NCBI GenBank assembly: GCA_043756665.1
Contig: JAYUQR010000045.1
Coordinates: 1-38,107, forward strand
Source: Candidatus Altimarinota bacterium
Lineage (GTDB): Bacteria > Patescibacteriota > Gracilibacteria > BD1-5 > UBA2023
Direction of reading: 5' to 3'
DNA length: 38,107 nucleotides
A program made the position numbers and the translations under genes. Below, piece after piece: positions 5,378 through 36,272 of the stretch (position 1 is the first letter of the stretch; every line of letters begins with the position of its first letter). A model generated the notes under the pieces. That model did no database searches. It was not told where the DNA came from and worked only from the letters and a program-made list of their open reading frames with translations.

Positions 5378-6028
5378 TTAGAAGAAGGGGAAGAAGTTTG
5401 ATTTAATGGAAGTCACAGAGGGGGCAAGTGAGAACATTGTTCCATTATACTCTTGTGAAGCGGATGTAATATTCATTGACTTGCTTCCTGCGGGAGTTTG
5501 CGAGCTGTTTGAATCTGCGATAAAAAGACCTGTAAATAGTACCTCGATATTCGCTCGTATGAAAGTATTGGCTCATGCTGTGATAGCTAATCAGCTTCTT
5601 CATTTAGAGCACATAATAAGCCAAGTATCATTTTCTATGGTTGTTACTGTTTGCGTCCATGAGGTTGTGGTTGTTGGTCAGTTTGTAACTGTTGCATCTG
5701 GCACTCCAGATTGCCTAGCTCCCGTATAAGAAGCTATGTGACACATGATTACTCACGAAGTAGCTACCGTAATGACTACATTATTTGCTCCAGTAAGTGG
5801 GGCAATAAGTCAAAATGTAGAGGTGCTATTTCATACACCATCTGTACTTGTTGTCCCTATTTGTGTCATAGCGACTCCTCCATAAGTTACAGATGATATA
5901 GTTGTACTATGTCCAACATTTACCGTTAAGAATCTATTGGCTCCACTACAAGTATGAGATTGAGTCATAGTGGTGCCAGCATTTACCCTAGCTGCGGGCG
6001 TGGTAGTAGAGTCAAAAGCAATTGCCAT
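5378..6028 (-). CDS. virion protein, possible minor tail / receptor-binding protein (216 aa)
   Basis: Track ORF 5831..6028 extended through TGA codons to TAA 5378-5380. Product MAIAFDSTTTPAARVNAGTTMTQSHTCSGANRFLTVNVGHSTTISSVTYGGVAMTQ... is Ser/Thr-rich and beta-type, and lies downstream of a fibre gene. Confidence 0.7.
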
Positions 6029-6262
6029 TTATTTCACAATATTAGGAATAAGAGCGATCGCCTTTGCCATAGCCTCTCCCATCTTCGCCATTACTTCTAG
6101 CCTATCCTGTTCTGAATAATCAGGATTATCGACAGAAGTGCCGAGCCAGTTAGTAAGACTATCATAGTTTGCTTTGGCATTTTCAATTCATGAATCGAGC
6201 CCATCTATCCATGATTTGATTTGTAGGGCTGTGAGTTGTTTTGGTGTAGTTTCGAGAAACAT
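6029..6262 (-). CDS. hypothetical protein (77 aa)
   Basis: ATG 6262, TAA 6029-6031 abutting the next ATG. Product MFLETTPKQLTALQIKSWIDGLDSGIENAKANYDSLTNWLGTSVDNPDYSEQDRLEVMAKMGEAMAKAIALIPNIVK. Confidence 0.6.
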
Positions 6263-6273
6263 AGAGAGAAAAA

Positions 6274-7038
6274 TTAGTGATTATCATCCTTGGAGATCAG
6301 ATCCCATTTAGCGTCTGCACCATTATAGAAAAATAATAGATACATGGTCTTACTGATTATGGTTGTGGTTGGGAGGGTTGTATCTCCTCATCTGTATATA
6401 GCATTCCAAGTGATAGCACGGGCAGTACCATTATCTTTCATTCGTACTATGATGAGATTCCCATCGGCTGGAGTTCATGATGGAGCAGAGAATGTTGGAG
6501 CTACTGCGAGGGCTGTGATCGTCATATAGTTTCTGAGACTTCATCCAGTAGGTGTAGGAGTGGCACTCGATGCTGTGGTAGTATTCTCACTTATGACATT
6601 GCTCGATGCTATCATCGTCTTATTCGTGAGCGTATCAGTAGTAGCCCGACCGAGGAGTGTATCACTAGAGTCCTGGAGAGTATAGGTTCTATCTGCCGTA
6701 TTCGTATTCGTGAAAAAACTCGTGAATGTATTCGCTACATTACGAAGCCCGAACATGCCTGAGAGGAATGTTTTGAGTCATGATACGGTTTGAGTAGAGG
6801 CAAGGATCATATCGCCTGCTCACGCAGATACATTGAGTGTTGTTCCTGTGAAAGAAAGTCCTGTACCGAGTGTGATCTCCTCTATTGCTCCTGTGCCTGC
6901 TGTAGCACGCCCGAGGAGCTTATTGTTCGTTACACTATCCTCTTTTTTTGTAGTGTTGAGATTTGTGAAATTCGTATTGATAGTGCTTCGATCTGTGGCG
7001 ATAACGCCAGGTCCAAGAAGTGTAGTTATAGTACTCAT
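6274..7038 (-). CDS. tail fibre-like protein (254 aa)
   Basis: Track ORFs 6820..7038 and 6541..6756 are in one frame and join through TGA; stop TAA 6274-6276. It has a repeated LLGRAT motif (NNKLLGRATAGTGAIEEITLG and SDTLLGRATTDTLTNKT) of the kind seen in phage fibre proteins, plus a Thr/Ser-rich beta C-terminus. Confidence 0.7.
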
Positions 7039-29357: not shown

Positions 29358-30053
29358 TTAAACAACGGTTCCTCTCCTCGGTCGATTCTCTATCTCTGAC
29401 TTCTTATTGACCGCGTCATTGTATACTTGTGCATAATGCTTATACACTGTCTCTGCATTATATACCTTCCCATTCCAGAAGTCGAGCCTCGACGATATAA
29501 AAATAATCTGCTTACAGAATTCTATGCGTGACATATTCGCTTTCTCACAGATCTCTCAGAATTCTTTTCAGGAAAGTATATTTTTTGCTCGTTCCCGTTC
29601 GTATTTTCATTTCCGATAAATGAGCCCAAGGTGCTCTACTTGTCACTGTATGATTTCGAGGAGATCATTGATTTCTTCATTTCTGAATTCTTGTTGTACG
29701 ACGAGAGCTTGCTCTCATTCTTCTTTAGAAGAATTTTGATTTGAATTGACTTGGTTTGACTTGGTTTGACTTGGTTTGGTCGCACGTTTTTTTAAATCTT
29801 CTCGCCCCATAGGTCGCCCCATAGGTGCGAGATCTATTCTAAGCGGATTTCATTTTTTCGAGCTCGCTTTATTCTCAATTTGTACAGCCTCCGTCCAAAT
29901 ACTCAAAACTACCCCTCATCTCATCGATTGTTCTATGTCGATAATCTCTCCGATCGATAGCCTCATAAGAGAATCGAATACGTACGCCTTATCAGAATCG
30001 ACCATATAGGTAATCTGCATGGCGTAGTGTGTTGGGATCCGAAGTATGTCCAT
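29358..30053 (-). CDS. putative replication initiator / DNA-binding protein (231 aa) with tandem DNA repeats inside its linker-coding region
   Basis: ATG 30053, TAA 29358-29360, seven in-frame TGA. It is the first gene of the leftward module. The central low-complexity segment LAPMGRPMGREDLKKRATKPSQTKSNQVNSNQNSSKEE is encoded by the repeats at 29748..29825. The function is inferred from this architecture only. Confidence 0.65.
29748..29777. repeat. three perfect tandem 10-bp repeats (gacttggttt), iteron-like
   Basis: gacttggttt occurs at 29748, 29758 and 29768. It is preceded by degenerate tttga units, so the TTGAC cores are spaced one helical turn apart. Confidence 0.9.
29802..29825. repeat. 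two perfect tandem 12-bp repeats (tcgccccatagg)
   Basis: tcgccccatagg occurs at 29802 and 29814. An A/T-rich tract tttttttaaat (29787-29797) separates it from the 10-bp repeats. Confidence 0.9.
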
Positions 30054-30068
30054 ATATATATAAAAAAC

Positions 30069-30125: not shown

Positions 30126-30880
30126 ATTGTTTAGTTTGCAAAATTCACTTACCGTATCGCACCCCTATTCTATCCCTTTCCCAATATAAAGCAAATATTT
30201 TGTAGTGGCTTAGTAATTGTAGAGAAAATAATCTTATTTATACTACTGTTCTGTCTAGAATTAGACGTTGATGGATATTGGAAGATTCCTTGATATAAAA
30301 AACTCTCTATTACTAGAGAGAAACTATCACGATACTTCATACTATCAACAAGAGAGTATTCGTCTGTTATGCTGACGAGTGAGAAATATACAAGCTCACC
30401 GATTGATTTGATTATACAGGCGAGATCTTTTTTTATTTCTGTGACCTATTCTATTATATGAGTTTTATCAGAGAAAGAAATAGATATATTCCTAAGGTTC
30501 TTGAATCCCTTTAGATGCCTTCCCTCTGGTATCATCTTACAAGATATCATATAAAATAGAGTACTATATAATATCATTCTTGTTCACTTTATGTGTACGA
30601 TTATCGCAGTGTATATTTTATGTGATGGCTTTATAGAGCCTTTTCATATACTTTATTCAAAATAAACTTGCGATAAAAGAAAATAAGAATATACTTGTTT
30701 TACGTTCAGCACAACATTCGGTACACGCTACTCCTCGAGAGAGAATGAAGACCGAAAAGGAACTCACAAGAAACAACTCAAAAATAGTTTCTCTCATATA
30801 TAGGACTTTCTGCATGTCGGATATATAGTCGCTATCGAGAGAGACTAGAACTTGAGAAATCAAGTAAAGACGCCCTAGCC

Positions 30881-30886
30881 TATAAT
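30881..30886 (+). promoter_or_regulatory. -10-like TATAAT box immediately upstream of the structured RNA candidate
   Basis: A perfect TATAAT sits at 30881-30886. No convincing -35 element lies at 16-18 nt spacing. Confidence 0.3.
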
Positions 30887-30887
30887 T

Positions 30888-31029
30888 AGGGTGAAGTGGT
30901 GGCGGAATAGATAACGCACTGTACTTCTCGCAGGGCGGGTAAGCCACGAGCGATTAGAGATTTATAAAACCTGTTATTGCAAGGTGACTATACGAGTATC
31001 TCTCGGCAAATCCTTGCCCACTTCACTCT
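30888..31029 (+). ncRNA. structured RNA candidate (~140 nt), class unknown
   Basis: A 12-bp closing helix pairs agggtgaagtgg (30888-30899) with ccacttcactct (31018-31029, one G-U). Internal helices are gtggc/gccac, cgcactg/cagggcg, gcaagg/ccttgc and cgag/ctcg. A T6 run follows at 31039-31044. No plausible ORF covers it. Confidence 0.45.
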
Positions 31030-31126
31030 ATTTATAACTTTTTTCTATATGAACGAATACGAACTCTTCCGCAGGTATGAACAAGAACGGGAATATTTTG
31101 AGCGAGATCCTGAATAGTCAGTATAT

Positions 31127-31216
31127 GGTGACTATGGTGTAATAGTAGCACACACTCTACTTTAGTCCTGAGTGGGAGAGCCGACGGGCAAGTAGGTGTA
31201 AATCCTACAGTCACTG
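31127..31216 (+). ncRNA. tRNA-like element (type-II-like cloverleaf with irregular anticodon loop)
   Basis: The acceptor stem pairs GGTGACT (31127-31133) with AGTCACT (31209-31215), with G1-U72. The D-stem has 3 bp. The T-arm is GTAGG-TGTAAAT-CCTAC (31192-31208). A long variable arm has a GCC/GGC stem. The anticodon stem CACTC/GAGTG encloses 12 nt (TACTTTAGTCCT) instead of 7. A T6 run follows at 31220-31225. Confidence 0.35.
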
Positions 31217-31240
31217 ACATTTTTTAACCTTTCTTAAAGT

Positions 31241-31438
31241 ATGACAATTCTCGAATCAAACATCTGCACTATCTGTGAATGATATAAATCGAACGAAATA
31301 GAGGCACTTATATCTGAGCTTCAGATGATTGCCGATCGAAAGTATTCCGAGGAGGAAAACTATATTCCCTCTGAAGTAAAATACAGTCTTCCCGAGATAG
31401 ATTCGTCACTTGCTAGATTATCTCTCTATCAACAATAA
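31241..31438 (+). CDS. hypothetical protein (65 aa), first rightward gene
   Basis: ATG 31241, TAA 31436-31438. Product MTILESNICTICEGYKSNEIEALISELQMIADRKYSEEENYIPSEVKYSLPEIDSSLARLSLYQQ. Confidence 0.55.
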
Positions 31439-31448
31439 CAAATATCCC

Positions 31449-31703
31449 ATGAAAACAATCATAAATATCGCCATAGCACTCTTTATACTAAGTGTTGCGG
31501 TACTTCCTACTCCGACAGAGTGAAAAACTCTCTACAACTCAGATTGGTGTGATAAAATGTACTCTGAAATGTTCTTCCAGGACGTTCCTCCTACAATTCA
31601 GAAAGAATGCTGAAATAGATTCATCTATCTCACGAATGTCCAGAAATCCTATTATGTAATCACTAGTATATGACATATAAACAAACTCTTGAGGCTCAGA
31701 TAG
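31449..31703 (+). CDS. small secreted/membrane-anchored protein (84 aa)
   Basis: ATG 31449, TAG 31701-31703. Product MKTIINIAIALFILSVAVLPTPTEGKTLYNSDWCDKMYSEMFFQDVPPTIQKECGNRF... has an N-terminal hydrophobic signal-like segment. Confidence 0.6.
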
Positions 31704-31924
31704 AAATTGACTCTCGCAATCTCAGAAAAGTTCTCTCTTGAGAAAAGGTCGTTCGGTGTAGAGATCAGATAGTGATCGCCCTAAATATCCGTATCCTCGA
31801 TTATGGTCAAAAAATCTTTAACGCTTCATTATGAACACCTGATTTCTCTTAGCTCTCATATTCATACTCTGAATATCATTTTTTATTTCACGATTATCTC
31901 GATAATAACTCTAATTTTTACTAT

Positions 31925-32620
31925 ATGGAAACAAAAAATATTTCTTCTGCAATAATAGCAGTTATGCGAGAGATTAATGGAGTAGAGAAGTCTATGACTG
32001 TATGAAGTGGAAACAACTCGTATCAATGAGTGAGCGATAAAGACGTAAAGATTCTTATTCGAGATTCGATGATAAAAAATTGACTCGCTATCTTTCCCGC
32101 AGAAATAAACGCAAAAATCCAAATAGATAGATGGGAAGAAGATGATACGTATAATAAAAATCCACCATATCCAAAAAAGTCCAAGCAATCCGTTTTTACG
32201 GAGGTCACGACAAGGTATATTATTTTACACACAAGCGGGGAATCACTCGAATTAGCTGGATATGGACAGGGCGTAGATGCCCAAGATAAATGAGCAGGAA
32301 AGGCAACGACATATGCGCTAAAAAATACTCTTCTGAATATGTTTCTTATTCCTACAGGGGTAGACACTGACAATACCCACTCTGATGATATTCCAGTACC
32401 ACAAAAATCTATTGATACACCCAATGGATGAAAAAAAGAATATCCAGTCACCAAGTGGTTGAACTTCAGAGATCTCGAAAATCTCGTAAATTCATGAATC
32501 GATACAGAGGCTCTTCTTTCGAATCATATTAAAGATAATGAATTCACTCTTTCGAACAATATGAAGAAGACTCTCCGAGCCTATTGTGATAGTGGTGAAC
32601 TTTCCGAAATCCGATCATAA
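31925..32620 (+). CDS. erf: ERF-family single-strand annealing recombinase (231 aa)
   Basis: ATG 31925, TAA 32618-32620. Product METKNISSAIIAVMREINGVEKSMTVGSGNNSYQGVSDKDVKILIRDSMIKNGLAIFP...DAQDKGAGKATTYALKNTLLNMFLIPTGVDTD matches the ERF pattern as I recall it. Confidence 0.65.
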
Positions 32621-35897: not shown

Positions 35898-36272
35898 ATG
35901 TACATCTTCGACCTCGATGGCACGCTTGCCGATATACGTGAGAATAGAAAACTCCCCCCATGAAAAGCAATTATTCACAATGTAGTTTTATATAGGCAAT
36001 TAGCAGAGAAATACGAGTGTATAATTGTCTCAGGGAGAGACAAAAAACAACGAAGTATGGTATTCGATTTTTTACGATGAATATTTTTTAGTGGTAGGAT
36101 AATCCTCAACGACCTCCCTTTCCCCAAGCCACCGAACCACGAATTCAAAAGAATAGTATTCCAAAATCTTCTGGATGAGTGAGAAACCATCGACTGAGTA
36201 TTTGATGACAATCCCAAGGTTGGTGATGTATGTCGAGACCTCTGAATTCCGTTTTATCTTGTTAGCCAATAA
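35898..36272 (+). CDS. HAD-superfamily phosphatase-like protein (124 aa)
   Basis: Product MYIFDLDGTLADIRENRKL... (motif I DxDGT), ...IIVSGRDKK..., ...GVFDDNPKV (acidic motif). ATG 35898, TAA 36270-36272. Confidence 0.7.

Follow-up and report, generated by a model that had tools for sequence, protein, structure and literature searches.

Does a tRNA-shaped element that stands at the head of the early genes of a phage with an altered genetic code take part in translation and, if it does not, what else might it be? The question is raised by E2, a 90 nt element located at 31127–31216 on the plus strand of contig JAYUQR010000045.1, from the Candidatus Altimarinota bacterium assembly GCA_043756665.1. 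The window analysed here is this entire contig of 38,107 bp, one of the 160 contigs in a 1.36-Mb assembly. It is a phage contig, encoding a large terminase, an Erf-type annealing protein and DNA methyltransferases. E2 lies within a 1.2-kb region that is poor in open reading frames (ORFs). The leftward genes begin on its left, at 30053, and the rightward early genes on its right, at 31241; the 3′ end of E2 falls 24 nt short of the first early ORF.

An initial annotation of the sequence had offered several options for E2: a degenerate or intron-bearing tRNA, a decoy for host nucleases, a suppressor, or a processing signal. E2 does not decode; this is well supported by the geometry of its anticodon-position arm, the missing CCA end and the ordinary use of TAA and TAG as stops in the contig. 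Its descent from a class II leucine-type phage tRNA is likewise well supported, in this case by the resemblance of its T-arm and D-arm to a scaffold that is shared by many phage tRNAs. The suppressor and intron-bearing options are rejected. The other three (degenerate tRNA, decoy, processing signal) are all compatible with a tRNA-derived, non-decoding RNA, and none of them is singled out. The reading favoured here, held tentatively, is that E2 may be a mimic or decoy: a small RNA of tRNA shape that has no part in decoding.

Structure of E2

The minimum free energy (MFE) fold of the E2 90-mer is a cloverleaf of class II form with a tRNA-Leu-like body. All 24 of its 24 stem pairs are intact, without mismatches, and the helices lie in tRNA register save for a one-base irregularity at the acceptor/D junction. 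The acceptor stem pairs GGTGACT (31127–31133) with AGTCACT (31209–31215) over 7 bp, including G1–U72, at a pair probability of ~0.9, and is followed by the discriminator G at 31216; in alignment to the Rfam tRNA model, an acceptor register displaced by one base is favoured, in which U8 is present and position 66 is gapped. The D-arm, GTGT-AATAGTA-GCAC (31137–31151), sits within a conserved block, TGGTGTAATAGTAGCAC, and has a stem of 3–4 bp and the D-loop (T)AATAGTA. The variable arm forms the hairpin GCC-GACG-GGC (31180–31189), which is part of the MFE fold and has a pair probability of 0.82. The T-arm, GTAGG-TGTAAAT-CCTAC (31192–31208), is an exact match to the pattern GTAGGTGYAAATCCTAC. The helices listed in the initial annotation (a 7-bp acceptor with G1–U72, a D-stem, a variable arm and a 5-bp T-stem) are thus all present where it had placed them. 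Its observation that the T-loop TGTAAAT departs from TTCRANY also stands, but the loop is less exotic than this comparison implies, being one base removed from TGCAAAT, which is common in phage tRNAs.

The positions at which E2 departs from a working tRNA are the anticodon loop, the discriminator, the CCA end, position 56 and the 8–9 linker. The arm at the anticodon position (31153–31174) can be folded in two registers. In the first, CACUC pairs with GAGUG over 5 bp and closes the 12-nt loop TACTTTAGTCCT (−28.3 kcal/mol). In the second, UCUACUU pairs with GAGUGGG over 7 bp, three of them G–U, and closes the 7-nt loop UAGUCCU (−28.1 kcal/mol); this second register is the one favoured in the ensemble. 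The 5-bp stem closing 12 nt, which had been taken as the fold of this arm, is accordingly one of two registers of equal energy, and not the favoured one.

Directly after the discriminator come ACA and six T residues (ACATTTTTT, 31217–31225) in place of a CCA. This is a possible transcript end, at which a simple terminator scan gave no call. On the 5′ side of E2, the segment ATAGTCA (31114–31120) is complementary to TGACTAT (31129–31135), and the two can form an alternative 7-bp hairpin that competes with the acceptor stem. The conformers with the acceptor stem and with the alternative hairpin are isoenergetic (−30.8 and −30.6 kcal/mol, respectively). A 22-codon ORF (MNEYELFRRYEQEREYFERDPE, 31050–31118, plus strand) has its TAG stop inside the arm of this alternative hairpin; its coding status is unsupported, and the 46-aa reading frame that contains it (30977–31117) has no family match.

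Decoding and charging

Neither register of the anticodon-position arm gives U33 together with a purine at position 37 in tRNA geometry. The 7-nt loop UAGUCCU of the second register has A33 and C37, and its stem is shifted by 3 nt. The UUA and UAG triplets noticed within the 12-nt loop are indeed present; the sub-loop CTTTAGT, which had been proposed to display UUA between U33 and a purine 37, does not exist as a 7-nt loop in either register.

The 3′ end of E2 bears on whether the RNA could be charged. All 32 of the tRNA genes detected in the host assembly (G000) have an encoded CCA. PF01743, the head domain of the CCA-adding enzyme, was not found in this assembly, which is 86 % complete, nor in either of the other two genomes of the genus (95–96 % complete), nor in 36 of the 41 genomes of the family. 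These searches read through TGA codons, and they did find the enzyme in 5 family members and in 10 control genomes. As no CCA is encoded in E2 and no CCA-adding enzyme was found, an E2 transcript is predicted not to be chargeable in this host. Additionally, A73 is a leucine identity element in bacteria. When E2 is compared with the leucine tRNAs of its host, as had been recommended, all five host tRNA-Leu genes have A73 and E2 has G73. Against the 32 host tRNAs, the best match of E2 spans 10 nt and is out of register.

The lack of meaningful identity to host tRNAs also disposes of the idea that E2 is an attP core copied from a host tRNA gene. This candidate was rejected on the absence of near-identity to the 32 host tRNAs and on the absence of an integrase among the window proteins scanned, which are a subset of the ORFs.

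An altered genetic code had been claimed for this phage, and the claim is borne out: use of code 25, in which TGA encodes glycine, is confirmed. Under translation table 11 the long genes are broken up, and with TGA read as sense ORFs extend up to 1357 codons. One gene contains 73 TGA codons against 10 TGG and 53 GGN codons, which points to glycine and not tryptophan as the meaning of TGA, and the host assembly contains a tRNA-Gly(UCA), the reader of TGA. The 47 complete genes called all end in TAA (35) or TAG (12), the 48th gene running off the contig end. Reading TAG as sense does not lengthen the ORFs, TGA is the sole in-frame stop-type codon, and no ORF in the window is interrupted by TAA or TAG.

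A suppressor tRNA was rejected for want of a usable loop and of a CCA, with TAA and TAG serving as ordinary stops and no genes interrupted by them. An intron-bearing tRNA was rejected as well. The loop contains 5 extra bases, too few for an intron with a group I core of ~200 nt or more; no Rfam intron family matched in the E2 region; and the ARAGORN intron model of E2 appears only at the 80 % threshold, at which random sequence gives 16 matches per 38 kb.

Descent from phage tRNAs

Judged by generic tRNA finders, the distinction of E2 from chance is borderline. ARAGORN makes no call on E2 at default settings, with introns allowed or at -ps95. Detection of E2 requires -ps90, a setting at which random sequences built from the dinucleotide frequencies of the window give 0.5 matches per 38 kb and at which two calls inside genes of the window also appear. 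The relaxed ARAGORN assignments for E2 are Ser(ACT), or Arg(CCT) with a 4-nt intron. Rfam reports nothing on E2 at gathering scores or in a 600-nt E-value search. In a 121-nt search the Rfam tRNA model reaches 21.8 bits, short of its gathering score of 29, with E = 0.011 across all 4227 families; it aligns the acceptor, D and T regions of E2 and omits the anticodon arm. By the refuting condition named in the initial annotation, the output of the generic finders would count as no cloverleaf above noise, but this is overturned by homology to a phage tRNA scaffold, by which E2 is clearly not a chance fold.

This scaffold is characterized by the D-loop UAAUAGUAG and the T-loop UGCAAAU, the latter with G at position 55, where U/pseudouridine is near-universal. 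It is shared by Tyr, Met, Cys, Ser, Leu, Ile, Thr, Trp and Lys tRNAs (IMG/VR L017–L132; metagenome L153–L185). The T-arm pattern GTAGGTGYAAATCCTAC, expected by chance ~1e-5 times in 38 kb, occurs in more than 116 IMG/VR contigs; in 43 cases it lies within tRNAs called at the default threshold, of at least nine isotypes. About 60 % of the matches to the T-arm pattern are not called by ARAGORN, and several of these are odd tRNA-like elements.

The D-arm gives a second set of matches. The block TGGTGTAATAGTAGCAC recurs in tRNA-Trp, tRNA-Cys, tRNA-Lys and tRNA-Leu genes with the same T-loop on metagenome contigs. The 19-nt D-arm sequence of E2, ATGGTGTAATAGTAGCACA, is identical in a phage-type tRNA-Cys gene on metagenome contig L159, and an overlapping 19-mer of E2, TGGTGTAATAGTAGCACAC, is identical in the odd tRNA-like element of L162; the same D-arm 17–19-mer is found in the odd tRNA-like elements of L162, L178 and L297. 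The best covariance-model neighbours of E2 are scaffold tRNAs that share the D-arm block. Unrelated phage contigs (L162/L178, L297 and L300) hold elements that have the D-arm and T-loop of E2, an odd middle and no encoded CCA.

Relatives of the phage terminase are abundant, and on two related contigs a non-coding gap holds a tRNA that scores near the calling threshold. The tRNA-Tyr(GUA) of L009 (38.3 bits in Rfam) has an encoded CCA and the T-arm GTAGG-TGCAAAT-CCTAC, one base from that of E2; the tRNA-Met(CAU) of L007 likewise has an encoded CCA. The long variable arm of E2 and its GGTGTAATAG D-arm are closest to those of phage tRNA-Leu(GAG) genes. With the tRNA-Leu(GAG) genes of IMG/VR contigs L044, L093 and L113 and the tRNA-Tyr of L009, E2 has in common a 7-bp acceptor, a short D-stem and a 5-bp T-stem. 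With scaffold phage tRNAs of class II it shares the long variable arm, a near-identical T-arm (GTAGG TGYAAAT CCTAC) and D-arm (GGTGTAATAG...), and a location in a phage non-coding gap. In contrast to the scaffold tRNAs, E2 has a 12-nt or slipped 7-nt loop, U56, G73 and an irregular junction between acceptor and D-arm, and is without CCA; it falls under the ARAGORN and Rfam thresholds, and four of the features that define a tRNA are missing from it. Because both the T-arm and the D-arm match the phage tRNA scaffold, E2 is judged to be tRNA-derived, with a class II leucine-type phage tRNA as its probable source.

E1 and a family of tRNA-Leu mimics

A second element, E1 (30888–31029, plus strand), lies ~100 nt upstream of E2 on the same strand, the two being in tandem; it thus stands ahead of the element that the initial annotation had placed first among those transcribed in the early module. 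It is preceded by TATAAT (30881–30886) and followed by a T-run, and its membership of a wider RNA family of phages and prophages identifies it as an anticodon-less tRNA-Leu mimic with a split T-loop. The family signature, GGCGGAATAG-N(60–90)-GTGACTATACGAG, is found in at least 78 IMG/VR contigs and in 21 genomes, which range from Saccharibacteria to Acidobacteria, Actinomycetota and Proteobacteria. A total of 88 distinct members were recovered (including L143–L145 and L186–L284), and the signature is present in 88/88. The layout consists of an 8–12-bp closing helix, GGCGGAAUAGGUAGACGC, a hypervariable middle of 47–77 nt and a 6-bp T-stem, with the T-loop split by UGACUAUACGAG...CUCGKCAAAU; the insert is 5–88 nt long and hypervariable. 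Several members have a T-run directly after the closing helix.

The T-stem is fully paired, over its 6 bp, in 84 of the 88 members and the closing helix is 7/7 paired in 79 of them. Many different sequences occupy both helices, which amounts to strong covariation. The homologue of E1 in L143–L145 shows compensatory changes in the closing helix, and these contigs also carry a 68 %-identical homologue of the 231-aa protein encoded next to the element. Because the helices covary, E1-type RNAs, which are tRNA-Leu-shaped and non-decoding, are judged to be maintained by selection in phages. The family has no match in Rfam 15, as searched with four typical loci and one isolated member; no conserved protein neighbour of the family was found, and no paper describing the signature sequences was found in the literature. 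On one of the member contigs, L230, a type-P5 twister ribozyme (6887–6940, minus strand, 52.8 bits) is located ~1.4 kb from the E1-family element.

E2 stands outside the family signature. It has GGUGUAAUAGUAGCAC where the family has the D-arm GGCGGAAUAG(G)UAGACGC, and its T-loop, UGUAAAU, is uninterrupted. It is without GGCGGAAUAGGUAGACGC and without the UGACUAUACGAG...CUCGKCAAAU insert, its closing stem is 7 bp long against 8–12 bp, and no homologues of it were found, against at least 88 members of the family. Nonetheless, alignment of E2 with the local E1 gives a score of 43 against 19.4 ± 3.6 for shuffled sequences, which is significant. The shared parts are the D-arm, a hairpin with a loop beginning UACUU and a short GC hairpin. 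Both kinds of element appear to be derived from tRNA-Leu, and both are non-decoding, CCA-less, phage-borne and followed by a T-run.

A proposed non-decoding tRNA-shaped RNA and its alternatives

The reading that E2 is a non-decoding tRNA-shaped small RNA, a mimic or decoy, is preferred, at rather less than an even chance. On this view a leucine-type phage tRNA of class II gave rise to E2, which would be a gene, or would have ceased very recently to be one, and would have kept the tRNA body (acceptor stem, D-arm, variable arm and T-arm) with no role in translation. Expression would be from the plus strand, where the rightward early region begins, and would yield a separate RNA, small, stable and tRNA-shaped, with its fold under selection. 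Such an RNA may occupy a host factor that recognizes the tRNA body, without entering translation; candidates are a tRNA-directed nuclease or another tRNA-binding protein. Four observations suggest this reading: the 24 stem pairs are all intact and the departures fall in unpaired positions with translation-specific roles; E2 is in tandem with a member of a selected tRNA-Leu mimic family; similar singletons occur in other phages; and E2 is positioned at the start of the early region. The E2 transcript not being chargeable, it could not replace a tRNA and could serve only as a decoy.

A broader form of this reading, and a rather doubtful one, would make E1 and E2 together an early-expressed cassette of two tRNA-Leu-derived, non-chargeable RNAs that act as effectors on host factors. 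E2 would then be the sister form, with an intact T-loop, of a large phage class of ‘tRNA body without anticodon’, and these RNA-only effectors might exploit or block host factors that recognize the tRNA elbow and acceptor stem. The singletons that share the D-arm and T-loop of E2 (L162, L297, L300) point toward such a cassette. The tRNA-maturation toolkit of the host is minimal, with neither a CCA-adding enzyme nor a type A RNase P RNA detected.

Several results weigh against E2 being a mimic or decoy. BLAST over 400 host-class genomes gave no homologue of E2, nor was one found among GenBank phages or at 15 terminase-linked loci and 10 loci linked to the 231-aa neighbouring protein. A single-sequence covariance model of E2 (R1), run on the same 400 genomes, returned only ordinary tRNAs of 71–80 nt at 20–29 bits, and pattern scans of IMG/VR and metagenomes gave nothing nearer to E2 than the scaffold tRNAs. 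In L143–L145 the E1 homologue is kept and E2 was not found; in L006, the closest terminase relative (88 % identity), neither E1 nor E2 has a sequence match in the corresponding region. Without a homologue, E2 offers no covariation and no direct evidence of selection. Moreover, no convincing promoter was found directly upstream of E2, its folding energy is unremarkable (z = −1.5), and its elbow has U56 where the scaffold has C56. No PrrC/RloC-type nuclease/ATPase was found in the host, and a search for antisense targets of the 12-nt loop gave only chance-level 10–11-mers in phage and host, so that no target of a decoy can be named.

Some of these points are equally those expected of a relic. 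E2 may be a recently inactivated pseudogene of class II tRNA-Leu type, not yet deleted and without a function of its own, a possibility that is to be taken seriously even if it is on the unlikely side. E2 is a singleton without a found homologue and was not found in L143–L145, which keep E1; it shows about five lesions (the five extra loop bases, U56, the aberrant 8–9 linker/position 66, G73, and ACA for CCA); and related phages have working tRNAs in comparable non-coding gaps. However, about half of the bases of E2 are paired and the stems are intact; the probability that some five random lesions would all spare the stems is ~0.02, a rough estimate since the ancestral sequence is not known. 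Dead DNA is seldom kept in phage genomes, and the neighbouring E1 belongs to a class of non-decoding tRNA-Leu-shaped RNAs that appear to be selected.

Less probable again is that E2 acts in cis, either as a terminator of the E1–E2 small-RNA unit or an attenuator of read-through into the first early gene, at 31241, or by a tRNA-punctuation cleavage that defines the 5′ end of the mRNA. The location of E2, just ahead of the first early ORF and followed by ACATTTTTT, invites this reading, as does the T-run that follows the closing helix in several E1-family members. The alternative hairpin 31114–31120/31129–31135, equal in predicted energy to the acceptor stem, and the stop of the 22-codon ORF within its upstream arm together resemble the layout of an attenuator, but the leader ORF is unsupported as a gene. 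A 7-bp stem closing a 75-nt multiloop makes a poor intrinsic terminator, and the terminator scan made no call here. Cleavage is unsupported in that type A RNase P RNA (RF00010) gave no match in the 86 %-complete host assembly, where the RNA may be divergent. Nor would a cis element explain the need for a full tRNA body with the D-arm and T-arm of the scaffold.

A working tRNA, whether an ochre (UUA) or other suppressor, a tRNA-Leu(UAG), a tRNA with an expanded anticodon or one with a mini-intron, is very improbable. LeuRS and SerRS do not read the anticodon, the loop does hold UUA and UAG, and relaxed ARAGORN does propose a Ser or Arg isotype; yet these calls are at noise level, no 7-nt loop offers U33 and R37, G73 replaces A73, a CCA is neither encoded nor likely to be added in a genus where no enzyme was found, TAA and TAG end all 47 complete genes and interrupt no frame, and the five extra bases are too few for a group I intron. 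Most improbable of all is a cloverleaf formed by chance in AT-rich non-coding DNA, or as the signal of a minus-strand gene, for although the z-score and the ARAGORN background would permit the former and a 62-aa minus-strand ORF overlaps E2, the exact 17-nt T-arm and 19-nt D-arm matches to the scaffold stand in the right order and spacing, the Rfam tRNA E-value of the local search is low for 4227 families, and the 62-aa ORF has no family and no homologue.

Other features of the contig and its relatives

Additional structured or repeated sequences are found in the ORF-poor region and its surroundings. A 76-nt non-coding block at 30775–30850 (plus strand; TCTCTCATATATAGGACTTTCTGCATGTCGGATATATAGTCGCTATCGAGAGAGA) shares 83 % identity with a block present in two copies on phage contig L151 (10493–10568 and 11317–11369), where a promoter-like TATAAT precedes the first copy; the block probably represents a regulatory site or one more small structured RNA. 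A 91-nt stretch of the divergent control region, at 30291–30378, is 77 % identical to the corresponding region of L143–L145 (L143 3512–3599). It overlaps a 15-mer, ATATAAAAAACTCTC, that is repeated (at 30058 and 30293), and also a minus-strand hairpin resembling a terminator.

At the corresponding place in L006 there is a different structured region of ~280 nt (5866–6335, minus strand), situated between two 35-nt promoter-like repeats (AAGCTAAATACATA..TACAGGGAAATAAAA). This region starts with a 55-nt mini tRNA-like set of hairpins with the 12-nt loop UAACUUAUAGAA.

Among the early genes, a 60-codon ORF at 31670–31852 (plus strand) stops at TAG and shares its frame with the Erf gene (31925–32620), which lies 72 nt downstream, no stop intervening; this looks like coincidence. 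The gene at 35898–36272 (plus strand) encodes a 124-aa early protein similar to the phosphatase domain of polynucleotide kinase-phosphatase (Pfam HAD_PNKP, 32.4 bits; PHROG 415, E = 7.5e-15), and no kinase or ligase partner was identified near it. The presence of this gene is a weak hint of RNA-end chemistry in the operon of E2. The N-terminal and C-terminal parts of a DNA methyltransferase are located at opposite ends of the contig (37515–38105 and 1–315, both plus strand). This suggests a complete phage genome that is circular or circularly permuted; the frames do not join exactly as assembled.

Comparison with known systems and significance

The nearest published analogy to E2 appears to be the species 1 and 2 RNAs of phage T4 (rnaC and rnaD), which are stable RNAs of unknown function. 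Like E1 and E2, they are a tandem pair of small phage RNAs. At its end T4 rnaC has a T-arm of tRNA type with an acceptor-like 3′ end, and rnaC and rnaD adjoin tRNA genes. In contrast to E2, they are part of a true tRNA cluster, in a host with a CCA-adding enzyme. Homology between E2 and the T4 RNAs was not detected, the E2 model R1 scoring 9.4 bits on rnaC and 6.9 bits across the tRNA-Arg gene and the 5′ end of rnaD.

Phage tRNAs that evade host nucleases offer another comparison. Variants of T5 tRNAs reportedly counter PARIS or retron-type defences, and the tRNAs of mycobacteriophages are said to evade host anticodon nucleases through altered anticodon loops. By this account they resemble E2 in having a phage-encoded tRNA body with an anticodon loop unlike that of the host, and they are said to be expressed early; they are also described as charged and decoding, whereas E2 would not be chargeable.

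For annotation, E2 should not be labelled as a tRNA gene, and it provides no suppressor or unusual decoding tRNA in this code 25 phage. Given a host that encodes every CCA and apparently is without a CCA-adding enzyme, the argument that a CCA-less tRNA-like RNA is not charged is an unusually clean one here. Being short, with an uninterrupted T-loop and a location beside E1, E2 would be convenient for finding the binders of a tRNA body that is without anticodon and CCA. If functional, E2 would be a simple, near-canonical-looking addition to the non-decoding tRNA-shaped RNAs of phages, and the E1 family indicates how widespread such RNAs are.

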